Position numbers and translations under genes: made by a program
Source of the DNA: an uncultured Thiothrix sp.
GTDB lineage: Bacteria; Pseudomonadota; Gammaproteobacteria; Poriferisulfidales; GCA-002705445
Direction of reading: 5' to 3'
DNA: 64,000 bases
Assembly (NCBI GenBank): GCA_902595225.1
Contig: CACJPG010000002.1
Span: forward strand, 65,151-129,150
The notes under the pieces: model-generated
What the model was told of the DNA's origin: nothing
Seen by the model: the letters and a program-made list of their open reading frames with translations, nothing else
Database searches by the model: none
Part shown: positions 18,924 through 31,287 of the stretch, in pieces
Numbering within the stretch: the first letter of the stretch is position 1
Layout: each line of letters opens with the position of its first letter

Positions 18924-20747
18924 ATGTGCGGTATTGTTGCAGCAGCATCACAAAATAACGTGGTAAATATATTAGCTGATGGGTTAAAACATCTAGAATA
19001 TAGAGGTTACGATTCAGCAGGCATAGCTGTTATTGAAAATGAAAATATACATAGTTATAAAAAAGAAGGACATGTTTCTGAACTAACTAGTATTCTAGGT
19101 AAAGATCTAGCCTCGAATATTGGTATAGCACATACAAGATGGGCTACACATGGAAAACCATCTGAAGCAAATGCTCATCCCCATATATCTGAAAATAGTA
19201 TCGCAATTGTTCATAATGGTATTATTGAAAACTATATTGAAATAAAAGAAAAATTTTTTAAAAACATTAAGCTAGAATCCGAAACAGATTCCGAAGTATT
19301 AGCACATCTTATAAATTTTTATGCAAAAGATAATAATATTCTAGATGCTGTACATTCTGCCTTAAAAGAAGTTAAAGGCTCTTATGCAATCGCAGTCTTA
19401 GATAAAAATAATTCTAGCGAAATAATAGTTGCGCGCCATGGCAGTCCTCTTATTATTGGTGTTGGTGAAGATTCTAATTTCATTGCGTCTGATGCTCATG
19501 CTTTAATTGAACATACAAATCAATTTATATATTTAGATGATGGCGATATGGCTTCAGTGAGTTCAAGCGAAATAAATATTTTCGATAAAGATAAAAATTC
19601 CGTAAATAGAGAAATAAAAAAAAGTAACATTTCATTAGGAAGTAATTCAAAAAATGGATTTGAGCACTTTATGCTTAAAGAAATTTTTGAACAACCAGAG
19701 GCGGTTAAAGCAACAATTCAAGACCGAATAATAAATAACTCTGTACCTAAAGAGATTTTAGGGCCAAGTGCTGAAAAATATCTTGATGGTTTTAAGGTGG
19801 TTCAAATCATTGCATGTGGAACGAGTTATCATGCAGCCTTATTAGCAAAACATTGGTTTGAAAAACTTGCTGGAATTCCCTGCCAGGCAGAAATCGCAAG
19901 TGAATTTAGATATAGGAAGCACGCTGTTCAACCTGGAACATTATCCATATGTATTTCACAGTCTGGAGAGACAGCAGATACTCTTTCGGCATTAAGACAA
20001 ATAAAAGAAGAAAAGAATTATATTGGCACCATTGCAATATGCAATGTGCCAGAAAGTTCAATTGCAAGAGAATGCGATTCAACTTTAATAACACATGCGG
20101 GTCCTGAAATCGGAGTTGCATCAACAAAGGCTTTTACAACACAATTGGTTGCCTTAATGCTTTTAATAATTGTACTCGGGAAAAATTTTGAAATTTCGGA
20201 AGAAATTGAAAAATCACTATGTGAACAATTACAAACTTTACCTGAAAAGATTAAAAGCACCTTGGATTTAGACCAAGAAATAGCAGAACTCTCAAAAATA
20301 TTTTCTAATAAGGAGCATGCTCTATTTTTAGGTCGAGGCTCACATTTCCCAATAGCCAGAGAGGGCGCTTTAAAACTTAAAGAAATATCTTATATTCACG
20401 CAGAAGCTTACGCTGCAGGCGAGCTAAAACATGGGCCGCTTGCTATTGTTGACGAAAATATGCCAGTAGTAGCGGTTGCTCCAAATAATGTTGTTTTAGA
20501 GAAACTGAAATCAAATCTTGAAGAAGTTAAAGCACGTGGTGGAAAACTTTATATATTTGCAGATAAAAAAGCTGGATTTAAAAGTGACGAGATTTCTCAA
20601 GTTTTTGAAATCGATGCACCGCTAAATCCTGTCGCTCCGATACTTTTTACCATTCCTTTGCAACTTTTAGCATATCACTGCGCCATTATTAAAGGTACAA
20701 ATGTTGATATGCCTCGCAACCTTGCCAAATCGGTTACAGTGGAATGA
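18924..20747 (+). CDS. glmS: glutamine--fructose-6-phosphate aminotransferase
   Basis: 607 aa with the N-terminal MCGIV nucleophile, two SIS domains, and the canonical C-terminus ...PRNLAKSVTVE. Confidence 0.98.
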   Translation: MCGIVAAASQNNVVNILADGLKHLEYRGYDSAGIAVIENENIHSYKKEGHVSELTSILGKDLASNIGIAHTRWATHGKPSEANAHPHISENSIAIVHNGIIENYIEIKEKFFKNIKLESETDSEVLAHLINFYAKDNNILDAVHSALKEVKGSYAIAVLDKNNSSEIIVARHGSPLIIGVGEDSNFIASDAHALIEHTNQFIYLDDGDMASVSSSEINIFDKDKNSVNREIKKSNISLGSNSKNGFEHFMLKEIFEQPEAVKATIQDRIINNSVPKEILGPSAEKYLDGFKVVQIIACGTSYHAALLAKHWFEKLAGIPCQAEIASEFRYRKHAVQPGTLSICISQSGETADTLSALRQIKEEKNYIGTIAICNVPESSIARECDSTLITHAGPEIGVASTKAFTTQLVALMLLIIVLGKNFEISEEIEKSLCEQLQTLPEKIKSTLDLDQEIAELSKIFSNKEHALFLGRGSHFPIAREGALKLKEISYIHAEAYAAGELKHGPLAIVDENMPVVAVAPNNVVLEKLKSNLEEVKARGGKLYIFADKKAGFKSDEISQVFEIDAPLNPVAPILFTIPLQLLAYHCAIIKGTNVDMPRNLAKSVTVE

Positions 20748-20770
20748 GTTTCATTGGACAGGATGGGTAG
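20730..20770 (+). repeat. repeat R0: the native glmS terminus (core tcggttacagtggaatga) plus right arm gtttcATTGGACAGGATGggtag
   Basis: The right arm immediately follows the glmS stop. There is no left arm; glmS coding sequence occupies that position. Confidence 0.8.
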
Positions 20771-20776
20771 AAAAAA

Positions 20777-21154
20777 ATGATGAATAAATTGATAAAAATA
20801 TTTTGCAATAGTTGTCTTGTTTTTTTAACAAGTATTTCTTTTGTTTTTGCAGAAGAGAATATATCTAATACATCTTGGTATATTTCTCATAATGATGGTC
20901 ATGAATATATTTTTCAATTTAATCCAGATGGAACTTGCCTCTATTTCCAGAAAAATTCTCCCACTGGAAATACTGGAAAAATCTATGATAACTGCAAATG
21001 GGTTAGGAAAAATAAAGTTTTAGTATTTGATTCTAATAATTATTATGCGGTACACATAGGCAGAATAGAAGGAAGAAGTATGACTGGTTATCGCGTATCA
21101 AATCACGACGTAGTAAAAAAAAGTACTTTTATTGGAAGAAGGATAGATAATTAA
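20777..21154 (+). CDS. cassette 1: small secreted protein of unknown function
   Basis: 125 aa with the Sec-type signal peptide ...LTSISFVFA/EE. No promoter module of its own, so probably read through from glmS. Confidence 0.6.
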   Translation: MMNKLIKIFCNSCLVFLTSISFVFAEENISNTSWYISHNDGHEYIFQFNPDGTCLYFQKNSPTGNTGKIYDNCKWVRKNKVLVFDSNNYYAVHIGRIEGRSMTGYRVSNHDVVKKSTFIGRRIDN

Positions 21155-21183
21155 ATGAGTAAACACAATACATTGAGACCGAT

Positions 21184-21293
21184 GAACATCCTGTCCAATC
21201 AAACGAAATCAGTCACGGTGGAGTAGTTAACTTCCGACATGATGGGTCAGTCCTAATTTTACAACCTCAACAATAATCCGTAGTATTAAAAGT
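21184..21293 (+). repeat. repeat R1: type A left arm, core tcagtcacggtggagtag, right arm, promoter-like module
   Basis: gaaCATCCTGTCCAATc...tcagtcacggtggagtag ttaacttccGACATGATGGgtcagtcctaatTTTACA-17-TAGTAT-7-ATG. Confidence 0.8.
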
Positions 21294-21698
21294 ATGAAAA
21301 TTAAATTACTCACAGTTTGTTTACTCTTAGTCACCTTGCAGGTGTTTGCAGAAAATAGATTTAATTGGACGCTAATATCTACCAGCACTGCTGATGATGG
21401 AAATAAATTTTATGGTGATATAAATAGCATCAGAAAGAACAAATCAGGAAATTATGTTGTTTGGATGTTACTTAATAACGTTGAAGGAGATTCTGTTGTT
21501 ACTTCTGAAGAGTATGATTGTACTCGATTAAGATTTAGATGGGTATATGTTGAACTCTATAGTCATCATTATGGAAAAGGAAAAAAAAAATTTACTGCTG
21601 ACACAGAAGAATTAAAACCAAAAGGTTATACTGATTGGATTTATCCTAAACCCAATTCAAATAATTACCATAAAGTTAATTTCGTTTGTGAAAAATGA
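21294..21698 (+). CDS. cassette 2: secreted protein, surface-adhesin protein E (Adhesin_E)-like fold family
   Basis: 134 aa, signal peptide MKIKLLTVCLLLVTLQVFA/E. Pattern W..I...(K)FY.D..SIRKN....VVWML.N...S...EYDC...R.R.....Y..HYGKG...W.YP......VNFVC matches my recollection of the Adhesin_E domain. Paralog of 22605-23003. Confidence 0.6.
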   Translation: MKIKLLTVCLLLVTLQVFAENRFNWTLISTSTADDGNKFYGDINSIRKNKSGNYVVWMLLNNVEGDSVVTSEEYDCTRLRFRWVYVELYSHHYGKGKKKFTADTEELKPKGYTDWIYPKPNSNNYHKVNFVCEK

Positions 21699-21815
21699 TG
21701 ACGATAACCATCATGTCCATACAAACGCAATCCGTAACAGTGGAGTAGTTAACTTCCGACAGGATGGGTCAGTCCAAATTTTACAATTTCAAAATAATCC
21801 GTATTATTAAAAAAA
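21698..21815 (+). repeat. repeat R2: type A left arm, core tccgtaacagtggagtag, right arm, promoter-like module
   Basis: ATGACGATAACCATCATGTCCat...tccgtaacagtggagtag ttaacttccGACAGGATGGgtcagtccaaatTTTACA-16-TATTAT-8-ATG. Confidence 0.8.
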
Positions 21816-22193
21816 ATGAAAATTAAAATATTTATAACTTGTCTATTTTTTTTATTTTCCGCCAACAGTTTTGCAGAATGGACGGAAATAGGCAGAAATG
21901 AAAAAAATGCTTTGTATATAGATTCTGAAAGAATAAGAAAAGATAATCTTGGGCACATATATGTTTATGTTTTGATGAATCACCTTAACGATGATGACCC
22001 CCGCTCTACAATTGCCTATTTCCAATGCGATTGTGATAAATTCTCATTTAAAATTTTGAAGGAGTTTTATCATAGAAAACTAATGGGTGTTGATAGATAC
22101 GATGATTACGCTGAACCAAAACCAGAATGGAATTACATTTATCCTGAATCAGGAAATGAACTGATTTTAAAGTATGCATGTGAAAATCTCTAA
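21816..22193 (+). CDS. cassette 3: secreted protein, Adhesin_E-like family
   Basis: 125 aa, signal peptide ...FSANSFA/E, then WTEIGRNEKNALYIDSERIRKD...YFQCDCDK...W.YIYPES...YACE. Paralog of 26430-26801. Confidence 0.55.
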   Translation: MKIKIFITCLFFLFSANSFAEWTEIGRNEKNALYIDSERIRKDNLGHIYVYVLMNHLNDDDPRSTIAYFQCDCDKFSFKILKEFYHRKLMGVDRYDDYAEPKPEWNYIYPESGNELILKYACENL

Positions 22194-22308
22194 TGACGAT
22201 AACCATCCTGTCAGAAGTAGAATATTCGGTAACAGTGGAATGAGTTTCAATGGACAGGATGAGTCAGTCCTAATTTTACAATCTTAAAATAATACGTATT
22301 ATTAAAGT
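22193..22308 (+). repeat. repeat R3: type A left arm, core tcggtaacagtggaatga, right arm, promoter-like module
   Basis: ATGACGATAACCATCCTGTCAGAAGT...tcggtaacagtggaatga gtttcaatGGACAGGATGAgtcagtcc.... Confidence 0.8.
22275..22302 (+). promoter_or_regulatory. representative cassette promoter-like module: TTTACA-16 nt-TATTAT ending 6 nt before the ATG (predicted leaderless transcript)
   Basis: The same arrangement recurs in R1, R2, R3, R7, R8, R9 and R10, with the -10-like hexamer 6-8 nt upstream of the ATG and no Shine-Dalgarno. R5 has the same TTTACA-16-TATTAT, but there the next ATG lies 33 nt downstream of the conserved attaaag. Housekeeping genes in this window have GGAG-type SD sequences. 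Confidence 0.45.
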
Positions 22309-22584
22309 ATGAAAATAAAAAAACTAGTAATTTCTTTAATATTATTTTGTAATCTTGCTTATGCCGCATCTGAAGAAAAGCAAATGGAATGGATTAATGA
22401 ATGTATTACACACACACCAAACAATATCTCATATGCTAGAGCAGTAGAATATTGTGGTTGTGCAACTAGAAAATTAATGGATCGATTTACAGAAAAGCAA
22501 ATAGATAACTCTTCTGCAGAAGATATCGCAAAGAATAAGTTAATGTCTGATATTGTTGAAGAATGTAATGCTGTAATAGAATGA
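22309..22584 (+). CDS. cassette 4, ORF a: small secreted Cys-containing protein
   Basis: 91 aa with signal peptide MKIKKLVISLILFCNLAYA/A. Confidence 0.55.
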   Translation: MKIKKLVISLILFCNLAYAASEEKQMEWINECITHTPNNISYARAVEYCGCATRKLMDRFTEKQIDNSSAEDIAKNKLMSDIVEECNAVIE

Positions 22585-22604
22585 ACAAATTTTTCTACTA
22601 ATAA

Positions 22605-23003
22605 ATGAAAACCAAACTACTCACAATCTGTTTACTTTTATTTTCTTCACAGTTGTTTGCAGAAAATTTATTTAATTGGACATACATAGCAACGAGTGAT
22701 GATGGTACTAAATATTATGCAGATAAAAATAGCATCAGAAAGAATAAATCAGGAAATTATATTGTTTGGATGTTAGATAATTCCAGTAAAGGAGATTCAT
22801 TAATTGCATCTGAAGAGTATGATTGTTCTAATTTAAGATATAGATTGGTATATGCTGCACTCTATAATAATCATTATGGAAAAGGGGGAAAAATAGGTTC
22901 TTATGACACAGAGCAATTAAAGTCAATAGGCAAATATAATTGGGTTTATCCTACACCGAAAACACCTAATGACTCTAAAGTTAATTGGGTTTGCAGAAAC
23001 TAA
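22605..23003 (+). CDS. cassette 4, ORF b: secreted protein, Adhesin_E-like family
   Basis: 132 aa, MKTKLLTICLLLFSSQLFA/E. Clear paralog of 21294-21698 (ENLFNWTYIATSDDGTKYYADKNSIRKNKSGNYIVWML...EEYDC...). Confidence 0.65.
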   Translation: MKTKLLTICLLLFSSQLFAENLFNWTYIATSDDGTKYYADKNSIRKNKSGNYIVWMLDNSSKGDSLIASEEYDCSNLRYRLVYAALYNNHYGKGGKIGSYDTEQLKSIGKYNWVYPTPKTPNDSKVNWVCRN

Positions 23004-23088
23004 AGATTAAAACAAAAAAAAGAATGGGAAAAGAAAAAGAAAAAATTTATAATATTTAAGATTTTAAAAAAATTATTGCTAAAAACTT

Positions 23089-23457
23089 ATGGATTTTAAA
23101 ACTGCTGTCAAAACATGTCTTATTGAAAAATATACAACTTTTTCTGGAAGAGCATCTAGATCGGAATACTGGTATTTCACTTTATTTACAACCATAGTTT
23201 TTATATGTGCGAATATTATAGATAATGCAATAGATCCGTATAGCATATTTGGAACATTCTACTTACTTTGCTTAGTGCTTTTAATTACGCCTATTATAGC
23301 ATGTGGTGCTAGAAGACTTCATGATATTGGAAGGTCTGGTTGGTGGTTATTAATTTATCTTACAGGTATTGGTTCAATCCTCATATTTATTTGGTCAATT
23401 ATAGCGGGAACCAAAAACGATAATGAGTATGGTATAAGTACTTACATTGGTAAATAA
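23089..23457 (+). CDS. cassette 4, ORF c: DUF805-family inner membrane protein
   Basis: 122 aa with motifs F.GRASRSEYWYF and RRLHDIGRSGWW characteristic of DUF805 (YhaH/YhaI-like). Multiple TM segments. Confidence 0.75.
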   Translation: MDFKTAVKTCLIEKYTTFSGRASRSEYWYFTLFTTIVFICANIIDNAIDPYSIFGTFYLLCLVLLITPIIACGARRLHDIGRSGWWLLIYLTGIGSILIFIWSIIAGTKNDNEYGISTYIGK

Positions 23458-23560
23458 TTGCACTACCACCTCCAACTCACCTTCCATAACGGTGGAGTAG
23501 TTGCTTTTGGACAGGGTGGGTCTGTTATCTCAGGGTCAGTTCCCTATCTATGTTTTACCA
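23458..23560 (+). repeat. repeat R4: type B left arm, core tccataacggtggagtag (V to I), right arm with a 14-nt insertion
   Basis: ttgcactaccacctccaactcaccttccataacggtggagtag ttgcttTTGGACAGGGTGGgtctgttatctcagggtcagttcc.... Confidence 0.75.
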
Positions 23561-23580
23561 ATATAGTGTTTAAATTATGC

Positions 23581-23611
23581 AATACTTCGAAAAATTGCTA
23601 TAAAGAGATTA
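23581..23611 (+). repeat. second upstream element, copy T2a (AATACTTCGAAAAATTGCTATAAAGAG...)
   Basis: Shares about 28 nt with 25484-25513 and 27781-27810. Followed by a truncated copy of the atgaaaaataa... start seen at 25514. Confidence 0.6.
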
Positions 23612-23646
23612 ATGAAAAATAAGTTTTTTTAAAGAAGGATCAAAAA

Positions 23647-23973
23647 ATGATAAGTATGAAATGGGTACTTTATATTATTGGTGTATCAAGTTGGATACTA
23701 TTTTTATATCAGAATACTGCAGAGAAATATGGATTCATGTCTGGCACCTTCTTTATGAACGGATACGGATTCTTAACAGGATTAATATCAGTAATTGTAT
23801 GCATTTTTTTGATGAGTGAGTTTTATGATTATTTAGAAATACTAGGAAGTTATTTTTTATTTCTATTAATTGCTGGTGCTTTAATTGGCGGATTGAAACA
23901 TCATGCACAGGGTTTAGGTTTATTTGGTCTTGTAATAGGGTACGTTTTATTTTTTATAAATAAATTTATTTAA
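23647..23973 (+). CDS. cassette 5, ORF a: small polytopic membrane protein
   Basis: 108 aa with 3-4 hydrophobic segments. Confidence 0.55.
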   Translation: MISMKWVLYIIGVSSWILFLYQNTAEKYGFMSGTFFMNGYGFLTGLISVIVCIFLMSEFYDYLEILGSYFLFLLIAGALIGGLKHHAQGLGLFGLVIGYVLFFINKFI

Positions 23974-23985
23974 CATGTTAAGAAA

Positions 23986-24741
23986 ATGAAAACCAAACTA
24001 CTCACAATCTGTTTACTCTTATTCACTTCGCAAGTGTTTGCAGAAGAATGCAAAGGAACAGATAAATCTAAGTGGAATAGTTGCATTGGCATAATAGATA
24101 CTTTTGAAAAAATAGAAGAAACAGATACAACGGAGGTTTGGGGTAGTGAAAAAATAGAAGGAAGATATGAGGGTGGTTTTGAACAAGGGTTATTTACTTC
24201 ACAATTTGAAGAAAAAATTATTCATAAAAATATTATTGTAAACGGTAAACATTTCTCAACCAGCAATCGTGGTTTTATGACTGGAAATTTTAAAGATGGA
24301 GTGCAAATAGGTTTATGGGGAGAATGTATCACTACCAATAACAGGTACAAACAATATAATCAGTTTGAAATTGGTAACTATAATAAACACGGGATTCGTG
24401 ATGGAGTTTGGGGACGTTTTTATTATGAAACAACTGCTTTTGATGGAAGTTTTGAAAAAACAGGATGTCATAAAAAAACAGTAGAATTATTTCTTGATAA
24501 AGAAAATTTATGCTCACAAAAGAAAAACAGTCATTTTGCAAGTTTTGAAACATATCTTAATGGCGAGAAAGTATCGGATTTTAACAAACTTTCTTGCAGA
24601 GGTCCGTCTGAATTTATTAATGGTTGGTTGGATTATATATCTACAATTGATGAAGAAAAATTATATTGTGAAGATACTTCATGCAAAAAACCAAGTAATA
24701 CCGACCCAGAATATGCAGAATGGATAAAGAATTTTGAATAA
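23986..24741 (+). CDS. cassette 5, ORF b: secreted protein with degenerate MORN/YwqK-like repeats
   Basis: 251 aa, MKTKLLTICLLLFTSQVFA/EECKG...W.SC.G. This N-module is shared with 27811 and 35688. Has G.xxG-type repeats (NFKDGVQIGLWGE, NKHGIRDGVWGRF). Confidence 0.55.
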   Translation: MKTKLLTICLLLFTSQVFAEECKGTDKSKWNSCIGIIDTFEKIEETDTTEVWGSEKIEGRYEGGFEQGLFTSQFEEKIIHKNIIVNGKHFSTSNRGFMTGNFKDGVQIGLWGECITTNNRYKQYNQFEIGNYNKHGIRDGVWGRFYYETTAFDGSFEKTGCHKKTVELFLDKENLCSQKKNSHFASFETYLNGEKVSDFNKLSCRGPSEFINGWLDYISTIDEEKLYCEDTSCKKPSNTDPEYAEWIKNFE

Positions 24742-24847
24742 CTGCACTATCACCTTCAAGTCACTTCTATCACAGTGGAATGAGTTTCATTGGAAAGGAT
24801 GGGTCAGTCCTAATTTTACAATCTCAAAATAATCCGTATTATTAAAG
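24742..24847 (+). repeat. repeat R5: type B left arm (1-nt deletion), core tctatcacagtggaatga (V to I), right arm, promoter-like module
   Basis: ctgcactatcaccttcaagtcacttctatcacagtggaatga gtttcATTGGAAAGGATGGgtcagtcctaatTTTACA-16-TATTAT. Confidence 0.8.
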
Positions 24848-25463: not shown

Positions 25464-25513
25464 GGAATGAGGAAAAACTATAAAAATATTTCAAAAATTG
25501 CTATAAAGAGAAT
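25464..25513 (+). repeat. second upstream element, copy T2b
   Basis: ggaatgaggaaaaactataaaaatatttcaaaaattgctataaagagaat compared with 27761-27810 ggaataaggaagaactataaaaatacttaaaaaattgctataaaggaagt gives 43/50 identical by hand count. Confidence 0.7.
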
Positions 25514-25678
25514 ATGAAAAATAATATGAAAGAGTGTGAAGGGTGTGGAAATACAGTTGCAGTATATGCTAATAAATGCCCTAACTGCGGTGCATATACA
25601 CATAAAAGTTTTCAAATAATAGAACTTATTTTTGCAATCTTGACAGTCTCCTTCATTGTATGGTGGTTTATATTGTAA
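25514..25678 (+). CDS. cassette 7, ORF a: small zinc-ribbon protein with a C-terminal TM anchor
   Basis: Below the ORF-track cutoff. Hand translation gives MKNNMKECEGCGNTVAVYANKCPNCGAYTHKSFQIIELIFAILTVSFIVWWFIL (54 aa) with CxxC-x10-CxxC and a hydrophobic tail. Confidence 0.5.
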   Translation: MKNNMKECEGCGNTVAVYANKCPNCGAYTHKSFQIIELIFAILTVSFIVWWFIL

Positions 25679-25745
25679 TGAAATATTCCATTACAATAAA
25701 AAATATCCACACCTACAAAATAACAATTACCCGTATCACGAAAAA

Positions 25746-26396
25746 ATGAAAACCAAACTACTCACAATCTGTTTGCTCTTAGTCACCTCGCAGGTGTTTG
25801 CAGAAGAATGGGCGAATATTTATACTAATAGCGGTGATAAACTTCAAATAGCATTGCCTGACGGGTATTGTGATATTACTCAAACAAATGAAGGTAAATT
25901 TATACTTAATCACTTGAATAAGACAAAACGAAATCTTTCTATTTATAAAAATTTTGAAGCAAAAATTGTATATAATTTATGTGGAAAAAAATATGATTAT
26001 CCATGGGGTTATATATTTTTTAATAATCAAAAATATTCTTCTTCATACACACAAACAGATTTAAACAAACTTGAATCTTCCTCTTTCAATAAAACTTATA
26101 TAAATGAAATAAAAGAAAAAACAAATAAAAGTCATGATATTAATAATCAAGATATAAAAATAGAGTCAGTAGATAGACCTGAATTAGTTTGGGAGGACAA
26201 AAATGCACTGATTTTTTATACCAATATACAGGCAAATATTGAAGGGCAGAAGTTTATTGAAGAGGTAACAGGTAGCACTATTTTATTTAATGGTTACCAA
26301 TTTTCTATGTACATTTATGACAAAAAAGGCGCGCAAAATTCTCTTCATAATTCTCAGTTACTTTTAAATGCTGCTAAATCGACTAAAAGTAGGTAA
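25746..26396 (+). CDS. cassette 7, ORF b: secreted protein of unknown function
   Basis: The track ORF starts at 25656. The internal ATG at 25746 gives the conserved MKTKLLTICLLLVTSQVFA/EE signal peptide, so it is the preferred start (216 aa). Confidence 0.6.
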   Translation: MKTKLLTICLLLVTSQVFAEEWANIYTNSGDKLQIALPDGYCDITQTNEGKFILNHLNKTKRNLSIYKNFEAKIVYNLCGKKYDYPWGYIFFNNQKYSSSYTQTDLNKLESSSFNKTYINEIKEKTNKSHDINNQDIKIESVDRPELVWEDKNALIFYTNIQANIEGQKFIEEVTGSTILFNGYQFSMYIYDKKGAQNSLHNSQLLLNAAKSTKSR

Positions 26397-26429
26397 ATTA
26401 TATACTTACTAAGTAGTTACTAAGTAAAT

Positions 26430-26801
26430 ATGAAAACCAAACTACTCACAATCTGTTTGCTCTTATTCACCTCGCAAGCGTTTGCAGGATGGACTGAGGT
26501 TGGTAAAAATAGCAGTGGTACAATTTTTTATGTAGACTTTGATAGAACTAAAGAGCATAACGGTTATAAATATTTTTATATGTTAGGTGATTACTTGACA
26601 CCATATAACAATGTTTTATCAACTGAATATTATATTCAACTTGATTGTAATAAATATAGATATAGACATATCAGTTTTATATTTTATGATCAATCCATGG
26701 GTAAAGGAAACGGCAGAGTAGATAACGAAATGATGAAGTGGGAAAATATAACTAAAGGTACTATGAATTATACTGTTAGTAAAAAAGTTTGCGATCGCTA
26801 A
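26430..26801 (+). CDS. cassette 7, ORF c: secreted protein, Adhesin_E-like family
   Basis: 123 aa, MKTKLLTICLLLFTSQAFA/G, then WTEVGKNSSGTIFYVDFDR...YIQLDCNKYRYR...GKGNG...W.NI...VC. Confidence 0.6.
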   Translation: MKTKLLTICLLLFTSQAFAGWTEVGKNSSGTIFYVDFDRTKEHNGYKYFYMLGDYLTPYNNVLSTEYYIQLDCNKYRYRHISFIFYDQSMGKGNGRVDNEMMKWENITKGTMNYTVSKKVCDR

Positions 26802-26836
26802 AACAATATTAAAATATATCAGTGTTTGATGCATAA

Positions 26837-26945
26837 TTACACTATCACCTCCAGCACAAATTCCGTCACCGTAGAATAATTTTGTATGGACAGGGTGGGT
26901 CAGTCCTAATTTTACAATATTAAAATAATTGGTATTATTGAAAGA
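26837..26945 (+). repeat. repeat R7: type B left arm, core tccgtcaccgtagaataa, right arm, promoter-like module
   Basis: ttacactatcacctccagcacaaattccgtcaccgtagaataa ttttgtaTGGACAGGGTGGgtcagtcctaatTTTACA-16-TATTAT-7-ATG. Confidence 0.8.
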
Positions 26946-27701
26946 ATGAAAACCAAACTACTCACAATCTGTTTACTCTTATTTACTTCACAGGTGTTTG
27001 CAGAAGGTAAATGGACTTCAACAAATAAACCTAATTGCTTAGTATGGGATCCGGCACCTAGAGACGAACAGACTGTTACATGGTCAGGAGAATGTAAATC
27101 TGGGAAAATACATGGCAAAGGTTTATTAACATGGAATTTTAAAACAAATGGTACACCTCAAACTCAATTAAACGAAGGTGAATTTAAAAATGGACGATTT
27201 TTTGGTCGATTTAAATATACATTTGAAAATGGTGATATATATATTGGTGATGTGCATGAGGAAACTGGAGATATGCACGGACGAGGCACTTATAAATATA
27301 TCAATGGTGATAAGTACGTTGGTGAATATAAGAATGGTCTACTTCACGGACGAGGCACTGCTACCTTAGCAGATGGAGCAGAATATGTTGGAGAATTTAA
27401 AGAAGACAATATGCACGGACGAGGCACTTTTACTTTTCCTGATGGAGAACAGTACATAGGCGAGTGGAAAGAAAATGTTATGCACGGACGAGGCACTTAT
27501 AATTATGCCAATGGTGATAAGTACGTTGGTGAGTACAAGAATGACAATATGCACGGACGAGGCACTTTTACTTATCACAATGGTGATAAGTACGTTGGCG
27601 AGTGGAAAGAAAATGTTATGCACGGACGAGGCACCTACACTTTTGCAGATGGAACAAAAAAAATTGGTCAATTTAAGAATGACGAATATATCGGCAAATA
27701 A
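26946..27701 (+). CDS. cassette 8, ORF a: secreted MORN-repeat protein
   Basis: 251 aa, conserved signal peptide, then about 8 MORN units (Y.GE.KN...HGRGT..Y.NGDK). Confidence 0.8.
   Translation: MKTKLLTICLLLFTSQVFAEGKWTSTNKPNCLVWDPAPRDEQTVTWSGECKSGKIHGKGLLTWNFKTNGTPQTQLNEGEFKNGRFFGRFKYTFENGDIYIGDVHEETGDMHGRGTYKYINGDKYVGEYKNGLLHGRGTATLADGAEYVGEFKEDNMHGRGTFTFPDGEQYIGEWKENVMHGRGTYNYANGDKYVGEYKNDNMHGRGTFTYHNGDKYVGEWKENVMHGRGTYTFADGTKKIGQFKNDEYIGK
27273..27686 (+). repeat. 69-bp (23-codon) tandem repeats inside the MORN gene
   Basis: The cacggacgaggcac motif recurs at 27276, 27345, 27414, 27483, 27552 and 27621, an exact 69-nt period. Confidence 0.85.
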
Positions 27702-27760
27702 TTAAATCATCATTACTTGTTAATTATTCCATTCCTATAGTAACTTCAAAATAAATTTCT

Positions 27761-27810
27761 GGAATAAGGAAGAACTATAAAAATACTTAAAAAATTGCTA
27801 TAAAGGAAGT
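27761..27810 (+). repeat. second upstream element, copy T2c
   Basis: See T2b. Directly precedes the ATG at 27811. Confidence 0.7.
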
Positions 27811-28329
27811 ATGAAAACCAAACTACTCACAATCTGTTTACTCTTATTTACTTCACAGGTGTTTGCAGAAGAATGCAAAGGAAATTATTGGGATAATTGT
27901 TACAGCGCATACACTTTTACCGGTAAGTATGCAGGTGATAAATACATTGGCGAATGGAAGGATAACAAAATGCACGGACTCGGCACTTATACTTATGCCA
28001 TTGGAGATAAATACGTAGGTGAGTTTAAAAACGGAGATTTTCACGGACTTGGCACTTACACTTATGCCAGTGGAGATAAATACTTTGGTGAATATAAAAA
28101 TAATAACAGACATGGACAAGGCACTTACACTTATGCCAGTGGAGATAAATACTTTGGTGAATATAAAAATGATGAAAGATATGGACAAGGCACTTACACT
28201 TATGCCAACGGAGACAAATACGCTGGTGGATTTAAAAATGGCAAGTTTCACGGACAAGGTACTTACACTTATGCCAACGGAGACAAAGAAGTTGGTCAAT
28301 GGGAAAACGACGCATACGTCGGCAAATAA
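27811..28329 (+). CDS. cassette 8, ORF b: secreted MORN-repeat protein
   Basis: 172 aa, MKTKLLTICLLLFTSQVFA/EECKG..., with about 5-6 MORN units (GTYTYA.GDKY.GE.KN...HG.). Confidence 0.8.
   Translation: MKTKLLTICLLLFTSQVFAEECKGNYWDNCYSAYTFTGKYAGDKYIGEWKDNKMHGLGTYTYAIGDKYVGEFKNGDFHGLGTYTYASGDKYFGEYKNNNRHGQGTYTYASGDKYFGEYKNDERYGQGTYTYANGDKYAGGFKNGKFHGQGTYTYANGDKEVGQWENDAYVGK
27970..28310 (+). repeat. 69-bp tandem repeats inside the second MORN gene
   Basis: Unit-start codons at 27973, 28042, 28111, 28180 and 28249, period 69 nt. The units starting at 28111 and 28180 are nearly identical. Confidence 0.85.
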
Positions 28330-28438
28330 TTACTCTGTCACCTCCAACTCACCTTCCGTCACCGTGGAATAATTTTGTATGGACATGATGGGTCAGTCCT
28401 AATTTTACAATCTCAAAATAATCAGTAATATCAGTAGT
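28330..28438 (+). repeat. repeat R8: type B left arm, core tccgtcaccgtggaataa, right arm, promoter-like module
   Basis: ttactctgtcacctccaactcaccttccgtcaccgtggaataa ttttgtaTGGACATGATGGgtcagtcctaatTTTACA-16-TAATAT-7-ATG. Confidence 0.8.
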
Positions 28439-28780
28439 ATGAAAACCAAACTACTCGCAATCTGTTTACTCTTATTCACCTCGCAGGTGTTTGCGGCAGA
28501 TGTATTTGTATGTTCTTATAAAAATTATAAAAACGAGACACGTACATACACTTATATCAGAAAAGATGATGGTAAATTTGTTACCTTTTTAGACGATGTT
28601 GAAATTCCAATGGTAAAAACATATGAAGATAATACATACTTACATCTTGTAGTGTCATTTGAAAATTATTTATTCGCTAGGGTAATTAACAAAATAACTA
28701 AAAAGGTTGAGCAAGTGGGTATAGAAGAATCTAAAACATCAACTGTAGATAAAGTTTATGGAACTTGTAAGGTTAGATAA
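28439..28780 (+). CDS. cassette 9, ORF a: small secreted protein
   Basis: 113 aa, MKTKLLAICLLLFTSQVFA/A. Confidence 0.6.
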   Translation: MKTKLLAICLLLFTSQVFAADVFVCSYKNYKNETRTYTYIRKDDGKFVTFLDDVEIPMVKTYEDNTYLHLVVSFENYLFARVINKITKKVEQVGIEESKTSTVDKVYGTCKVR

Positions 28781-28823
28781 AAAAACGTAATCTACTTTAT
28801 AATAACAACTGAGGTACAAAAGT

Positions 28824-29180
28824 ATGAATATGATTGAATCTGTGACTACATGTTTAAGTAAATATTTTACGTTTGAAGGAGTTGCGACAAGACCAGAATA
28901 TTGGTGGTTCCAATTATTTTATTTCATAGTGATAATAGTCGGTATTGTGCTTGATGGTAATTCTACAAATTCCTGGGATCGAAATTATTACGGATATTGG
29001 GAACTAATATTTACATTATTATTTTTTATACCAGCAATTTCAGTGAGTTGTAGAAGACTTCATGATTTGGGTAAGTCAGGATGGTGGCAATTAATTGGGA
29101 TTACAATTATTGGTCTTATTCCATTGATTTACTGGTTTTGCAAAGAGGGAGGAGTTACAAGCAAATATTCTAGTGAATAA
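28824..29180 (+). CDS. cassette 9, ORF b: DUF805-family inner membrane protein
   Basis: 118 aa with F.G.ATRPEYWWF and RRLHDLGKSGWW motifs. Diverged paralog of 23089-23457. Confidence 0.75.
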   Translation: MNMIESVTTCLSKYFTFEGVATRPEYWWFQLFYFIVIIVGIVLDGNSTNSWDRNYYGYWELIFTLLFFIPAISVSCRRLHDLGKSGWWQLIGITIIGLIPLIYWFCKEGGVTSKYSSE

Positions 29181-29288
29181 TTGCACTATCACCTCCAACT
29201 CACATTCCGTAACAGTGGAATGAGTTCGTTTGGAAAGGGTGGGTCGGTCTGAATTTTACATTTTTTAAATATTCCGTATTATTTAAAT
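29181..29288 (+). repeat. repeat R9: type B left arm, core tccgtaacagtggaatga, right arm, promoter-like module
   Basis: ttgcactatcacctccaactcacattccgtaacagtggaatga gttcgtTTGGAAAGGGTGGgtcggtctgaatTTTACA-16-TATTAT-6-ATG. Confidence 0.8.
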
Positions 29289-29702
29289 ATGAAAATTAAA
29301 CTACTCGCAATCTGTTTACTTTTATTATCCTCGCAAGTGTTTGCGGATCCTGATTATAAGTGGAAGTATATGGCAGAAGGAAAGACTTATTTTTGGTATT
29401 GGGATAGCAAAAATTTGACTGAAAAAAATGATAATTATCTTTTGTGGGTATTATATGATAATAAATATATAGAAAAAGGTATAGGTTCTCAGGTTGCGCT
29501 AATTGAAATTGATTGTGCTTACAACAGATATAAGAATATTTACATAGAGTCTTATGATGGCCAAATGGCAAAAGGGAGAATGCTACATAAAATGAGTTCT
29601 GAAGATTTGCCAGATCATGATTTATGGAAATGGACTTTCATGATAAAAAATAAAAATATCCATAATTTATATTTTCTTTCTTATTGTGATAAAAGGAAAT
29701 AA
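29289..29702 (+). CDS. cassette 10: secreted protein, Adhesin_E-like family (divergent)
   Basis: 137 aa, MKIKLLAICLLLLSSQVFA/D, then W.Y....YFWYWDSKNL......LLWVLYDN....S.VALIEIDCAYNRYK...Y.G.MAKG...W.W....YCD. Confidence 0.5.
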   Translation: MKIKLLAICLLLLSSQVFADPDYKWKYMAEGKTYFWYWDSKNLTEKNDNYLLWVLYDNKYIEKGIGSQVALIEIDCAYNRYKNIYIESYDGQMAKGRMLHKMSSEDLPDHDLWKWTFMIKNKNIHNLYFLSYCDKRK

Positions 29703-29724
29703 TTGAATTTTAAGTGAATATAAG

Positions 29725-29830
29725 CCCCCTGTTTAAACAAACGAAATCAGTCACAGTGGAGTAGTTGCTTTTAGGAAGGATGGGTCCGTCCTAATTTTAC
29801 AATCTCAACAATAATTCGTATTATTGAAGT
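29725..29830 (+). repeat. repeat R10: degenerate type A left arm, core tcagtcacagtggagtag, right arm, promoter-like module
   Basis: ccccctgtttaaacaaacgaaatcagtcacagtggagtag ttgcttttaGGAAGGATGGgtccgtcctaatTTTACA-17-TATTAT-6-ATG. The spacer aaacgaaatcagtcac is shared with R1. Confidence 0.75.
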
Positions 29831-30190
29831 ATGAAAACTAAATTATTGATAACCTGCTTGTTATTTGCACCCTTATTAAGTTGGGGAGTAGATATGATTT
29901 CACCAATAAATTTTAATCCAACCCCTGCGAACAAGAATAAAGTAATTTCGTTTATTAAATATAATGTTAAAGAAACATATTCAAGAATTGGAATGGACAG
30001 TGAGTCAACTTTAAGAATGATGGAAGAAGAAGAGTTGAGGTGTTTTAAAGAACTTACAAAAGTACAAGATATCAATTTATTAAAGAGAGTTAAACGACAA
30101 CTTTGCAACATCGGTATGTGCACTTATTCTACTATTCTCATGATGTACAATGAAGAAGTCAGAGCGTCTAAAAAAAATCTTGAGTGGTAA
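29831..30190 (+). CDS. cassette 11, ORF a: small secreted protein
   Basis: 119 aa, MKTKLLITCLLFAPLLSWG.... Confidence 0.55.
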   Translation: MKTKLLITCLLFAPLLSWGVDMISPINFNPTPANKNKVISFIKYNVKETYSRIGMDSESTLRMMEEEELRCFKELTKVQDINLLKRVKRQLCNIGMCTYSTILMMYNEEVRASKKNLEW

Positions 30191-30203
30191 AATATAATAA
30201 AAA

Positions 30204-30548
30204 ATGAAAACCAAACTACTCACAATCTGTTTACTCTTATTTTCATCACAAGTGTGTGCAGAGACTTGGTCATGCACTTATGAGTTTAATGGCGAAACAA
30301 AAATCAAAGTTTTTTCTATTAAAGAAAATAAAGTTTATTCTAATGGAGAATTATATCAAAGTGCTAAAATACTTCTGAATAATAAAAATGTCATACACAT
30401 ATATACGAGTTATCCTCATATTGGTGATGTAACATTTTTTGCAGAAGTTTATAATAGAACCAACAAGAGATTTTCAATGGCAGCGATTAGTGCAATTAAA
30501 AATGAAAAATATGCTATTATTGAGGGTGATTGTATAATTACTAAATAA
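30204..30548 (+). CDS. cassette 11, ORF b: small secreted protein
   Basis: 114 aa, MKTKLLTICLLLFSSQVCA/E. Confidence 0.6.
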   Translation: MKTKLLTICLLLFSSQVCAETWSCTYEFNGETKIKVFSIKENKVYSNGELYQSAKILLNNKNVIHIYTSYPHIGDVTFFAEVYNRTNKRFSMAAISAIKNEKYAIIEGDCIITK

Positions 30549-30569
30549 AAATAATAAAAAGAGGATATC

Positions 30570-30875
30570 ATGGAAAAGTTTTTAACGTCACTAGGCATAG
30601 CAGGTGTTATCTTTTTTCTTCTACTTGGCATTGCTCAAATATATGTGGGATTTCTTGGTATAGAATACTTTTATGGTTCAATTTGGGCGTGGGTTGCCGT
30701 TTTTTGCGCATTTTTTCTACGTATCGTATTTCCTTGTACAATCGGATCTTATTTTGGAGCATTATACGTTTTAGAATGGGAGTGGTATTTTGCGCTAGCA
30801 TTCGCATTACCAGGTATTCTATTTATCCTTCCAGCGACAATAACTGCATTAATTTCATCATTCAACAAAAATTAA
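30570..30875 (+). CDS. cassette 11, ORF c: small polytopic membrane protein
   Basis: 101 aa, aromatic-rich, 3 TM segments, with an SD-like gaggat upstream. Confidence 0.55.
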   Translation: MEKFLTSLGIAGVIFFLLLGIAQIYVGFLGIEYFYGSIWAWVAVFCAFFLRIVFPCTIGSYFGALYVLEWEWYFALAFALPGILFILPATITALISSFNKN

Positions 30876-30932
30876 AATCAGTATTATTTACTTTTTTGGA
30901 TTTGAAAATTAAATTTAGGGAGATGGTTTTAA

Positions 30933-31229
30933 ATGGATAAAAGCATTTTTTGGATAGCGCCATTAGTTGTTTTGGGAGTTGGACTTCTTCCAATGCCCTA
31001 TGGTTATTATTTTCTATCTAGGTTAGTAGTATGTGTATGTGCAATTTATTATGCTTTGCAATTTAACGAGCATCGAGAGACAACATTAGTCTGGGTATTC
31101 AGTTTTTTTGCTATTTTATATAACCCAATTATACCTATTCATCTTGGAGCAAAAGGATTATGGATTGTTGTAAATTTAATTACTGCTGGAGTATTTTTTG
31201 CAAATAAGGATAAAATCCAATTGGGATAA
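30933..31229 (+). CDS. cassette 11, ORF d: small membrane protein (PYGYY...R...NPIIPIHLG-type family)
   Basis: 98 aa, 3-4 TM segments, SD agggag upstream. The motif layout resembles a widespread small membrane protein family. That is from memory and not verified. Confidence 0.55.
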   Translation: MDKSIFWIAPLVVLGVGLLPMPYGYYFLSRLVVCVCAIYYALQFNEHRETTLVWVFSFFAILYNPIIPIHLGAKGLWIVVNLITAGVFFANKDKIQLG

Positions 31230-31238
31230 TATGCTGAA

Positions 31239-31287
31239 GACGATAACCATCCTTTCCATATAAAAACATTCGGTAACAGTCGAATAA
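31239..31287 (+). repeat. repeat R11 (array terminus): type A left arm plus core tcggtaacagtcgaataa, with no right arm or module
   Basis: GACGATAACCATCCTTTCCatataaaaacattcggtaacagtcgaataa, followed by unrelated attattagaagtgc.... Confidence 0.8.

Follow-up and report, generated by a model that had tools for sequence, protein, structure and literature searches.

The region behind glmS in the 64-kb window (the whole stretch of DNA analyzed) is most probably an additive island, in which small integrative cassettes have entered the gene's last codons by conservative site-specific recombination and accumulated in tandem. Integration into the glmS core by site-specific recombination is the best supported part of this reading and is very likely; the assignment of the enzyme to the serine recombinases stands at about even chances. 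The first-pass annotation had recognized the 12 copies of the glmS terminus (R0 to R11) but overlooked that these 18-mers are the cores of attachment sites bounding 11 integrated cassettes of 0.5-1.5 kb. Cassette limits were set from core position 8 of one site to core position 7 of the next. Most of the cassettes combine a promoter-like module of their own with genes for small secreted proteins, and paralogous cargo includes six Adhesin_E-like, two MORN, and two DUF805 genes. The features are as follows.

18924..20747, + strand: glmS, 607 aa, with Pfam SIS and GATase domains.
20730-20747, + strand: R0, the chromosomal attachment core, the last 18 nt of glmS, matching the core pattern.
20748..20768, + strand: family-A right arm, gtttcattGGACAGGATGGGT, after R0, forming with it an attL-type junction.
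20737..21215, + strand: cassette 1, R0 to R1, matched A/A arms, no promoter module; ORF 20777-21154 (125 aa, no Pfam match).
21216..21737, + strand: cassette 2, ending at R2 (core 21731-21748), promoter-like module 21258-21286; ORF 21294-21698 (Adhesin_E-like, with the shared signal peptide).
21738..22232, + strand: cassette 3, ending at R3 (22226-22243), promoter module 21780-21807, matched arms (-17.5 kcal/mol); ORF 21816-22193 (Adhesin_E-like).
22233..23489, + strand: cassette 4, unmatched A-type right and B-type left arm, ending at R4 (23483-23500, SITVE-stop); ORFs 22309-22584, 22605-23003 (Adhesin_E), and 23089-23457 (DUF805).
23490..24772, + strand: cassette 5, B-type left arm, ending at R5 (24766-24783, SITVE-stop); ORFs 23647-23973 and 23986-24741.
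24773..25352, + strand: cassette 6, B-type left arm, promoter module 24815-24842, ending at R6 (25346-25363); ORF 24880-25320.
25353..26868, + strand: cassette 7, family-C right arm at its start, ending at R7 (26862-26879); ORFs 25656-26396 and 26430-26801 (Adhesin_E).
26869..28361, + strand: cassette 8, promoter module 26911-26938, ending at R8 (28355-28372); ORFs 26946-27701 and 27811-28329 (both MORN-repeat).
28362..29212, + strand: cassette 9, promoter module 28404-28431, ending at R9 (29206-29223); ORFs 28439-28780 and 28824-29180 (DUF805).
29213..29753, + strand: cassette 10, promoter module 29255-29282, matched arms (-12.5 kcal/mol), ending at R10 (29747-29764); ORF 29289-29702 (Adhesin_E-like).
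29754..31276, + strand: cassette 11, promoter module 29796-29824, matched arms (-14.6 kcal/mol), ending at R11 (31270-31287); ORFs 29831-30190, 30204-30548, 30570-30875, and 30933-31229 (DUF6804).
31288..31652, no strand assigned: segment after R11, probably the last of the island, with a 69-aa ORF on the - strand (31332-31541).
About 31634-31652, no strand assigned: decayed terminal core ATGTCACTTAAATAAATAA, placed by alignment, abutting the native flank TTACAAGATGATCTCAAATCCCTCAAACATTGGGCG.

The degenerate pattern TCNRTNACNGTNGARTRR has exactly 12 matches in the window, all on the + strand (20730 ... 31270) and at the positions annotated before, with 0.00 expected in shuffled sequence. A search of the window allowing up to three mismatches found no extra core copies with one or two and added only scattered chance matches. 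Over the five sense codons, R1-R11 differ from R0 at 2, 0, and 31 sites in codon positions 1, 2, and 3, respectively, reproducing the earlier hand count. For the 12 copies, the minimum changes come to 1/0/10, and pairwise differences per site average 0.06/0/0.55. The sole first-position changes are in R4 and R5, each G to A and Val to Ile, and all three stop codons occur, both as previously described. The wobble-only pattern extends to homologous arrays elsewhere (137 non-redundant sites from relatives and metagenomes); 29 sites found solely via the right arm comprise 21 reading SVTVE-stop, three SITVE-stop, and five decayed; the pattern is strong, not absolute. In-frame stops 2-39 codons upstream of each copy rule out that the copies are ends of other genes, and the 112-codon upstream frame of R8 overlaps a MORN gene in a different reading frame. 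The full repeat spans ~90-100 bp rather than 18 bp, with a left arm upstream of the core and a right arm and promoter-like module downstream.

Linkage locates the point of exchange within the core. Bases at positions 3 and 6 covary (z about 12) and follow the left flank, and those at positions 9-18 covary and follow the right flank; no linkage was found between the two blocks (z about 0), and the wobble positions 6 and 9 (z = -0.9) segregate to opposite flanks. In contigs L010 and L091, glmS is the same (94/94) and the second cassette 99% identical, while the first cassettes are unrelated; position 9 is the one core difference at the first junction, whereas the second junction differs at positions 3 and 6 alone. 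L081 and L089 share the HNH cassette without any difference between core position 8 of its first site and core position 8 of the following one, and the DNA beyond is unrelated. These comparisons show that DNA is exchanged at the invariant A7-C8 of the Thr codon, precisely where the inverted-repeat arms of intact cassettes are centered. Further exchange points lie within arm and promoter sequences (L010 vs L109, L081 vs L126).

The division of the core is also seen at the glmS end itself. Ten contigs with an identical GlmS protein (P0011) and identical upstream DNA fall into five types by their 3' half, which ends in TAG, TGA, or TAA and in each type goes with a different neighboring cassette. 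The host-specific AGT Ser codon is present in 3 of 22 real glmS ends vs none of 115 cassette-side copies, and Ile variants in 10 of those 115 copies vs none of the 22 ends. GlmS thus retains its own Ser-Val codons, and (Thr)-Val-Glu-stop is supplied by the adjacent cassette; in R0, positions 1-7 are the host's own, and positions 8-18 with the right arm come from cassette 1. None of 84 arm-anchored sites has TGG at the stop position, although the search pattern permitted it and TGG would be expected in ~1/5 of sites if positions 17 and 18 varied independently. The coding constraint on the 3' half is therefore real: positions 8-18 vary at wobble positions alone, since any cassette's copy may become the real end of the essential enzyme.

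In general, the earlier suggestion of a functional tie between the repeats and the glmS terminus is correct, and each of the two explanations then offered applies to part of the core. Service as the translated glmS end accounts for positions 8-18 and fails for positions 1-7, which remain attached to the upstream cassette's left arm and never become part of glmS. A DNA-binding protein reading the invariant bases comes close in spirit for positions 1-7, presumably held by recognition as a recombination site; the specific TnsD/attTn7 analogy fails, as discussed below.

R0 has only a right arm and R11 only a left arm, its right arm not being recognizable, and internal sites have both. The right arm at 20748..20768 (family D6) pairs over 17-18 bp with the left arm before R1 (-18.6 kcal/mol). 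Four or more arm families surround the one core, including the B-type left arm TGCACTACCACCTCC, the family-C right arm tgTTAAACAGTtg of cassette 7, and the family-C left arm ACAAAAACACTGTTTAT seen in L088, L108, L122, and L143. Arms lie 11-30 bp from the dyad center, and their pairing is centered on core coordinate 7.5 in 24 of 28 reconstructed circular junctions (families A, B, and D). Pairing is stronger across a cassette than around one site (-10.3 vs -7.7 kcal/mol, Wilcoxon p = 0.004), and 26% of cross-cassette pairs rank within the top decile of all possible partners. In family A, compensation between cognate arms is only modest (z = 3), and mismatches are conserved at some positions. The arms of cassettes 4-9 in the window do not match (right A or C, left B), and arm-family counts are unbalanced. 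A conserved module of 100-170 nt combining junction, promoter, and signal peptide is repeated (families D2-D4). The sites are imperfect palindromes of considerable length, and as single strands they fold well.

The same glmS-linked system was found in related marine gammaproteobacterial genomes and 56 marine metagenome contigs, the latter retrieved with the family-A left-arm pattern and hence biased towards that family. Multi-copy arrays are confined to these; in 68 unrelated bacteria, the sole copy is the glmS end itself. Cassettes overall range from 0.3 to 8 kb, often with one or two genes and their own promoter; the cargo in relatives and metagenomes is mostly restriction-modification and other defense genes, and in divergent hosts also includes ion channel, HNH, and metal resistance genes. 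Comparison with empty sites shows that the glmS-linked arrays are insertions. Among lineages sharing an identical GlmS protein, some have the site empty (glmS, yhbY, DUF2721, ytoQ ...) and others have different cassettes; in the window, the block that adjoins glmS at empty sites comes after the array, on its downstream side. At the empty site in L005, glmS is followed by gtagtagtaaattttgtacatgaac, the flank that in L010 stands after the last repeat of a four-cassette array; TTACAAGATGATCTCAAATCCCTCAAACATTGGGCG directly follows the terminal repeat in L001 and L128. Cassettes are also mobile between array positions and host lineages. A DUF2939 cassette occupies the fourth place in L010 and the first place, behind a divergent glmS, in L109 (97.8% identity), four contigs carry the HNH cassette among different neighbors, and cassette 5 matches a cassette on metagenome contig L121 (98% over 774 nt).

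In the proposed mechanism, the presumed circular form of a cassette would carry an attP-like site of left arm, 18-nt core, and right arm, the arms being inverted repeats with their dyad center between core positions 7 and 8. In recombination with the end of glmS, DNA would be swapped at A7-C8, so that glmS keeps its Ser-Val-(Thr) bases, the cassette gives the Thr third base, Val, Glu, stop, and right arm, and the old terminus is displaced to the distal end of the insert. An incoming cassette would recombine within the last five codons and have to rebuild the glmS end, which would explain why a copy of these codons borders each cassette. Repeated integration beside glmS would stack cassettes into attL, hybrid internal sites, and attR, and homologous recombination in the conserved arm, promoter, and signal-peptide modules may also shuffle cassette parts.

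Domains of integrases, recombinases, or transposases were absent from the scanned window ORFs of at least 120 aa and from the checked cassette ORFs of at least 170 aa in relatives and metagenome contigs. With a crossover zone of at most 2 bp exactly at the dyad center, the lack of a cassette-encoded recombinase points to a serine recombinase in trans, probably of the large, Ccr-like kind, encoded elsewhere in the genome or supplied by a helper element. Several considerations weigh against this assignment, which derives from site geometry and linkage. The attP half-site of large serine integrases is usually ~25 bp, and the outer part of the arms exceeds it. To serve four or more arm families around one core, either recombinases of several specificities or recognition of structure would be required. 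Both arms of internal sites are P-type, and canonical large serine integrases do not recombine two attP-like sites; the enzyme would therefore have to be promiscuous and Ccr-like. The unmatched arms and unbalanced family counts, moreover, go beyond core-only recombination. The further exchange points in arm and promoter sequences and the modest compensation in family A likewise tell against the proposed scheme.

The same architecture could be served in trans by a tyrosine recombinase, either a classical integrase (6-8 bp overlap) or IntI acting on folded single-stranded hairpins, which we consider unlikely. Integration at a gene 3' end with its reconstitution is typical of tyrosine integrases, which most marine tycheposon and tRNA-repeat islands use (10.1101/2020.12.28.424599; PMC10872708), and the foldable palindromes are superficially attC-like, as the size, uniform orientation, and array form of the cassettes are integron-like. 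However, an overlap of 6-8 bp centered at 7.5 would span wobble positions 6 and 9, which would have to match or be co-inherited, yet they are unlinked; a hairpin crossover would sit in the unpaired apical loop and not in the stem as in attC. Neither intI nor another integrase lies beside the attachment site or in any cassette, cassette boundaries have no R''/R' (RYYYAAC/GTTRRRY) boxes, and cassettes have their own promoter-like modules.

Unequal crossing-over, duplication, and inter-strain homologous exchange via the conserved repeats (core, arms, promoter and signal-peptide modules), with no dedicated recombinase, would fit the paralogous cargo, the repeated 100-170 nt module, the unbalanced arm families, and the additional exchange points in arm and promoter sequence. 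Such exchange is highly improbable as the whole explanation: it leaves unexplained the origin of the glmS-terminus copies, the linkage switch within 3 bp, the unrelated cargo at the same site in divergent hosts, and the one dyad center common to four unrelated arm families. An 18-bp core with variable wobble bases is also too short for RecA-dependent exchange.

That the copies are sites or decoys for a TnsD-like target selector, or relics of Tn7-like insertions, is scarcely credible despite the classical attTn7 position and the reading of non-wobble glmS bases by TnsD (PMC2918618), since 18 nt rather than the 36-bp TnsD site are repeated with upstream in-frame sequence unrelated to glmS, the junctions lie inside the ORF and not ~20-25 bp past the stop, where Tn7 inserts (PMC2918618), the sites have inverted repeats that attTn7 lacks (PMC2918618), no tnsABCD-like genes occur among the ORFs scanned, and the absence of TGG points to translation rather than binding alone.

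Among known systems, Tn7 similarly uses the conserved glmS C-terminal coding sequence, conserved only at non-wobble positions, as a safe-haven address (PMC2918618). It is, however, a transposon that requires tnsABCD, leaves glmS untouched, and makes no copies of its end, unlike the site-specific recombination system proposed here. Integrons (attI/attC) likewise gather small, mostly co-oriented cassettes (0.5-1.5 kb) in arrays at a single chromosomal platform; their cassettes lack a recombinase of their own, and their sites are imperfect palindromes of variable sequence. They differ in having intI beside the platform, a crossover in the R' box at the stem base rather than at the palindrome center, and cassettes relying on Pc; the platform here is the coding end of an essential gene. 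Tycheposons and tRNA-anchored additive islands of Prochlorococcus and Ca. Methylopumilus resemble the glmS island in partial copies of the target-gene 3' end that separate elements, decaying remnants, defense and niche-adaptive cargo, and abundant streamlined planktonic hosts (10.1101/2020.12.28.424599). Their target is a tRNA, whereas here it is a protein-coding stop region, which gives rise to the codon-position signature; tycheposons also have their own tyrosine (910/937) or large serine integrase, none being linked here, and the present units are much smaller.

SCC/SCCmec, pseudo-SCC, and composite islands, moved by Ccr large serine recombinases, occupy the 3' end of rlmH (orfX) in staphylococci rather than glmS in marine Gammaproteobacteria. 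They are about 20-60 kb long, compared with 0.3-8 kb here, and the present system has several unrelated arm families around one core and no ccr-like gene in about 90 cassettes. As in the glmS island, SCC repeats vary synonymously, and SCC ends carry inverted repeats. In both systems, integration occurs within the last codons of a housekeeping gene whose end is rebuilt, direct repeats with the integration-site sequence flank the elements, several elements are stacked in tandem, and the recombinase-less pseudo-elements of SCC rely on a recombinase in trans (PMC2900268). The 2-bp crossover proposed for the glmS island would likewise suit a serine recombinase.

The core pattern TCNRTNACNGTNGARTRR has exactly 12 matches in the 64-kb window (R0 to R11), all on the plus strand and with none expected by chance, and no further copies with one or two mismatches were found. 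R0 is the real 3' end of the gene for the 607-aa GlmS protein, whereas none of R1-R11 terminates a plausible ORF. The first-pass annotation had claimed that these copies of the glmS end vary almost only at synonymous positions; R1-R11 differ from R0 at 2 first, 0 second, and 31 third codon positions, exactly as in its hand count, and this wobble-only pattern is real and highly non-random.

The conserved repeat unit measures approximately 90-100 bp rather than 18 bp. Most cores are followed on the 3' side by a spacer, a right arm with the consensus ..TTGGACAGGRTGGGTCAGTCC, and a TTTACA-16/17-TATTAT promoter-like module that ends approximately 8 nt before the next ATG. Two kinds of left arm precede the cores in the window, family A (GACGATAACCATCCTGTCC), which is the inverted complement of the right arm, and family B (TGCACTATCACCTCC). 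Of the two outermost cores, R0 carries a right arm alone and R11 a left arm alone. The 11 intervals between successive cores (cassettes 1-11) span 479-1523 bp and carry 1-4 small co-oriented ORFs each, including Adhesin_E-like, MORN, DUF805, and DUF6804 ORFs as well as unknowns. Unmatched arms occur in cassettes 4-9. The features of the island and its end are as follows.

Features of the glmS cassette island (window positions)
18924-20747: glmS gene, ending in R0
21258-21286, 21780-21807, 22275-22302, and 24815-24842: promoter-like modules at a fixed distance past the right arm
26911-26938, 28404-28431, 29255-29282, and 29796-29824: further promoter-like modules at the same fixed distance
Within 21257-30264 (ATGs at 21296, 22607, 23988, 25748, 26432, 26948, 27813, 28441, 29291, and 30206): ten copies of a signal peptide
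25461-25520, 27758-27817, and partly 23580-23617: second conserved 5' module
31332-31541, minus strand: 69-aa ORF
31544-31614, minus strand: sub-threshold match to the SAM-V riboswitch
31640-31612: strong promoter-like site GTGACA-17-TATAAT
About 31634-31652: decayed core
31653-31700: flank abutting the decayed core

The TTTACA-16/17-TATTAT module was found, as a consensus match only, at the start of 8 of the 11 cassettes; promoter-like sites in the region overall are not above the level in shuffles, and only their positional conservation is informative. This arrangement suggests that every cassette may be transcribed from a promoter of its own into a leaderless or near-leaderless mRNA. Ten cassette ORFs whose mature domains are unrelated (Adhesin_E-like, MORN, or unknown) carry an almost identical signal peptide, MKTKLLTICLLLFTSQVFAE, and its sequence is conserved at the DNA level along with the upstream promoter-like region, suggesting a common unit for export and expression that recombination has carried from cassette to cassette. 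The paralogous secreted-protein genes of the window have evidently been produced by duplication and divergence. A second conserved 5' module, TGGAAT[GA]AGGAA[AG]AACTATAAAAATA..AAAAATTGCTATAAAG, lies within cassettes 5, 7, and 8; its first bases are similar to the final 8 nt of the core followed by the 'ggaag' right spacer of other contigs, and these modules may be eroded sites, in which case cassettes 7 and 8 would each be two former cassettes. We also considered the sites as intrinsic terminators and rejected this, as only one weak hairpin was found, at R9, fewer than in shuffles.

The array is preceded by dnaA, mnmG/rsmG, parAB, the atp operon, and glmU and followed by housekeeping genes. 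Past R11, the decayed core ATGTCACTTAAATAAATAA abuts TTACAAGATGATCTCAAATCCCTCAAACATTGGGCG, a sequence that lies directly 3' of the terminal repeat in two other array contigs (L001 and L128). The island thus probably extends approximately 370 nt past R11, its true terminal site having been eroded. The SAM-V-like match (33.5 bits against a gathering score of 41, E = 0.029), the 69-aa ORF directly downstream of it, and the GTGACA promoter-like site all lie between R11 and the native flank. No Rfam family reached its gathering score in the window, and nothing accounts for the repeats as an RNA element. The window also contains no tRNA or tmRNA, and an exact-protein look-up retrieved no identical protein on record for its GlmS, AtpD, and three cassette proteins.

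Scanning one genome per species with GlmS as the guide yielded 12 close relatives (76-88% identity), which are marine gammaproteobacterial MAGs and SAGs. Core arrays stand behind glmS with two copies in L001, three in L008, five in L010, and at least two in L012; the site is empty in other relatives of the 12, and in 68 unrelated bacteria the organism's own glmS end is the sole copy. The flank gtagtagtaaattttgtacatgaac lies directly 3' of glmS at an empty site (L005) and follows the last array repeat in L010, indicating that the arrays are insertions at the glmS terminus and that the last core with this flank is the displaced ancestral glmS end. A metagenome scan with the cassette-side pattern (family-A left arm plus core) matched 56 marine contigs. 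Three site patterns gave 0, 0, and 5 matches in viral contigs, all five being chance matches without the full core, and annotated plasmids and phages had no BLAST match to 7.9 kb of the array. In total, 144 sites were harvested, 137 of them non-redundant, with arms of at least four unrelated families (A to D). The cassette island is widespread in this marine gammaproteobacterial clade.

Cargo in the relatives and metagenomes is mostly defensive, comprising restriction-modification systems of types I and II, C5 and N6 methylases, an Mrr-helicase, and HNH and NucS-like nucleases; an ion channel and genes for metal resistance are also present. Two of the cargo proteins, 331-333 aa long, adjoin sites (L116, 11448-12446; L124, 303-1295, minus strand). 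They have only an N-terminal domain of approximately 170 aa in common, 36% identical, and no Pfam or NCBIfam match, and the L124 contig also holds a C5-methylase cassette. They were examined and set aside as candidate novel recombinases; both lie in restriction-type contexts, and they may represent a new family of modification-dependent nucleases.

The same cassettes are mobile between array positions and host lineages: a DUF2939 cassette is the fourth in L010 and the first after a divergent glmS in L109, with 97.8% identity, and an HNH cassette occurs in four different neighbourhoods. Contigs with one identical GlmS protein differ in what comes next: the site may be empty or may hold a metal-resistance insert or a defence array, and most contigs break within approximately 200 nt past the gene. 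The locus after glmS is hypervariable within populations. In MAGs and metagenomes of the clade, the stretch approximately 0-200 nt past glmS is a much more frequent place for a contig to end than other places are (L002, L003, L004, L006, L011, L146-L148, and L151-L161), an assembly signature of population-level heterogeneity at the locus. On one contig (L150), a solitary right arm of approximately 37 nt (gtttcaatgaacaaggtggtcctgttatcttaggttt, 5022-5060) separates glmS from a flank that adjoins the gene directly in its sister contigs, L142 among them; this arm looks like the scar of a cassette loss.

Three independent lines of evidence, namely linkage, natural experiments, and geometry, agree on the exchange point. 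Across the 137 sites, the core wobble positions form two blocks. Positions 3 and 6 show tight mutual linkage (z about 12) and vary with the left flank, whereas positions 9, 12, 15, 17, and 18 form a second linked set that varies with the right flank, and there is no linkage between the two blocks. The switch between positions 6 and 9 places the exchange at the invariant A7-C8 of the Thr codon. Contigs L010 and L091 have identical glmS sequences (94/94), unrelated first cassettes, and second cassettes that are 99% identical; the sole core difference at the glmS junction is position 9, and at the following junction the cores disagree at positions 3 and 6 alone. Similarly, the HNH cassette shared by L081 and L089 is identical over the whole stretch between core position 8 and the same position of the following site, and the DNA on either side is unrelated. 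We further rebuilt 28 circular junctions by joining the left arm at the end of a cassette to the right arm at its start. The products were long near-perfect palindromes of 13-30 paired bases each, with the dyad centre at core coordinate 7.5 in 24 of the 28 (families A, B, and D). Arms paired across a cassette reach -10.3 kcal/mol vs. -7.7 kcal/mol for arms around one site (p = 0.004), and when ranked against every possible partner, a quarter of the cross-cassette pairs are in the top decile. The right arm is part of the downstream cassette. A model in which the upstream cassette owns the whole palindromic site and crossover occurs at the far end of the right arm was rejected on the linkage, the strain pairs, and the arm-less terminal sites. 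Insertion at the glmS terminus is a tandem, precise addition of discrete units, with a crossover zone of at most 2 bp at the dyad centre.

With crossover at A7-C8, the Ser-Val codons stay glmS's own, and the adjoining cassette supplies the last base of the Thr codon together with the Val and Glu codons and the stop. This transfer is seen directly in three results, the third being the coding-specific constraint on the 3' half described below. Ten contigs with the identical GlmS protein P0011 (nine with identical upstream DNA) carry five different 3' halves (e.g., ..GGTGGAGTAG, ..GGTGGAGTGA, and ..AGTCGAATAA), each paired with a different right arm and cassette. The Ser codon AGT occurs in 3 of 22 real glmS ends vs. 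none of 115 cassette-side sites, and hosts with AGT keep it at glmS whatever comes next, as do all contigs encoding another GlmS, P0096.

The two halves of the core are differently constrained. TAA, TAG, and TGA are all common as core stops, TGG is absent from 84 arm-anchored sites although the retrieval pattern permitted it, and position 15 is A or G only, indicating that the 3' half is under coding-specific constraint; a purine-reading protein would not impose these limits. The AC at positions 7-8 is invariant in 137/137 sites, though the Thr codon fixes it as well. Positions 1-7 of cassette-side sites always remain with the upstream cassette and are not translatable as GlmS, yet they retain T1, C2, T5, and A7, with T1C2 the mirror image of G13A14 about the dyad; this conservation must reflect a role in the recombination site. 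Amino acid-changing variants that are at all common are confined to the 5' half, Val to Ile being found in 10 of 115 cassette-side sites vs. none of 22 real glmS ends. Decayed cores (Ser to Leu, Pro, Phe, or Tyr; Glu to Val; stop to TTG) make up about 5-15% of sites, depending on the anchoring, and selection on the core is thus strong but not absolute. The GlmS C-terminus belongs to the active-site region and shows almost no variation across life (PMC2918618), which accounts for the strength of this selection. The first-pass annotation had proposed that the copies serve as the translated end of glmS or, alternatively, that a DNA-binding protein reads them. The former holds for the 3' 11 nt, as seen from the P0011 3' halves, the AGT codon, and the lack of TGG, but not for the 5' 7 nt, which stay with the upstream cassette; an explanation of the recognition type is needed for these 7 nt.

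We infer that the recombinase is probably a serine recombinase, which would cut the central dinucleotide at the dyad centre and need identity only at that dinucleotide. The features of a generic serine att site are present, with the linkage break at positions 7-8, the dyad at 7.5, and the invariant AC. The arms reach further from the centre than is usual for large serine integrases, four arm families surround one core, internal sites are attP-like on both sides, and the arms of window cassettes 4-9 do not match, all of which are caveats to this assignment. A tyrosine recombinase with a classical 6-8 bp overlap centred on the dyad would take in wobble positions 6 and 9, demanding that they match or co-transmitting both, whereas these two positions show no linkage and segregate to opposite flanks. 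An attC-like folded single-strand substrate was rejected as the active form, as its crossover would sit in the unpaired apical loop. The serine recombinase must act in trans because no cassette encodes one: no recombinase was found in the cassettes examined from relatives and metagenomes, and no recombinase, transposase, or Phage_integrase domain among the scanned window ORFs of at least 120 aa. Action in trans has a precedent in the Ccr recombinases, which act on pseudo-SCC elements (PMC2900268). As a further caveat, some cassette comparisons show extra exchange points inside conserved arm and promoter sequences, and homologous recombination among conserved modules evidently reshuffles cassettes as well.

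It is possible, if somewhat doubtful as a whole, that these elements form a previously undescribed integron-like cassette system of abundant marine Gammaproteobacteria, assembled from other parts than an integron and with the stop-codon region of the essential glmS gene as its platform. Minimal recombinase-less cassettes, often one gene with its own promoter, would be bounded by dyad-symmetric sites of several arm families and carried between positions and host lineages by a single trans recombinase, probably of the serine type and possibly reading palindromic structure rather than sequence. If so, defence and cell-surface cassettes would circulate in a common ocean-wide pool. A trans recombinase, if found, would offer genome engineering a compact site-specific integration system with a short, nearly universally conserved attB and tolerance of diverse attP arms.

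The results give a striking sequence pattern a mechanistic explanation, in which the half of the attachment site donated to the gene is constrained by protein coding and the other half by site recognition. In abundant streamlined marine Gammaproteobacteria, the glmS terminus is a hypervariable island that differs among cells with identical GlmS and carries restriction-modification and other defence genes as well as secreted surface-type proteins, which accounts for the breaks immediately past glmS in metagenome assemblies of this clade. This terminus, almost invariant across life and known as the safe haven of Tn7, also anchors a second, mechanistically unrelated class of mobile element.

The literature searched yielded no description of a glmS-end cassette array or integrase system, although one may still exist. 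Overall, the glmS terminus anchors an additive cassette island that resembles SCC and integrons, and this island departs from SCC, tycheposon-type islands, and integrons in their defining features. Tn7 inserts about 20-25 bp past the glmS stop and leaves glmS intact (PMC2918618), whereas the array junction falls within the ORF, between nucleotides 7 and 8 of its final 18 nt, and no transposase or TnsD-like domain was found among the cassette proteins examined; the two share an address and are unrelated in mechanism. Tycheposons and tRNA-repeat additive islands of streamlined plankton are ecologically alike (10.1101/2020.12.28.424599; PMC10872708), but a tycheposon uses a tRNA/tmRNA site and an element-borne integrase, neither of which is present at the glmS site. 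Integrons resemble the array in cassette size and array form. However, an integron has intI next to attI, whereas the array has glmU and the atp operon upstream and cassettes, then housekeeping genes, downstream, and no Phage_integrase match was found in the relatives. Integron attC sites recombine in the R' box (G|TT) at the stem base and travel whole with the upstream cassette, whereas exchange here falls at the palindrome centre, A7-C8 of the core, and the right arm travels with the downstream cassette. Integron cassettes are promoterless and expressed from a common Pc; 8 of 11 window cassettes start with the promoter-like module, a candidate promoter by consensus match. The closest functional analogue is SCC/pseudo-SCC at rlmH, with its gene-end attachment site, integration in the 3' terminal codons, direct repeats of these codons at element boundaries, tandem composite islands, and recombinase-less elements (PMC2900268). 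Inverted repeats at the element termini are a further shared feature; in the array they pair as cognate arms across cassettes. Neither a ccr gene nor any Resolvase or Recombinase domain was found in any cassette examined, and the target is glmS rather than rlmH; the glmS array works like SCC and is not a member of it.
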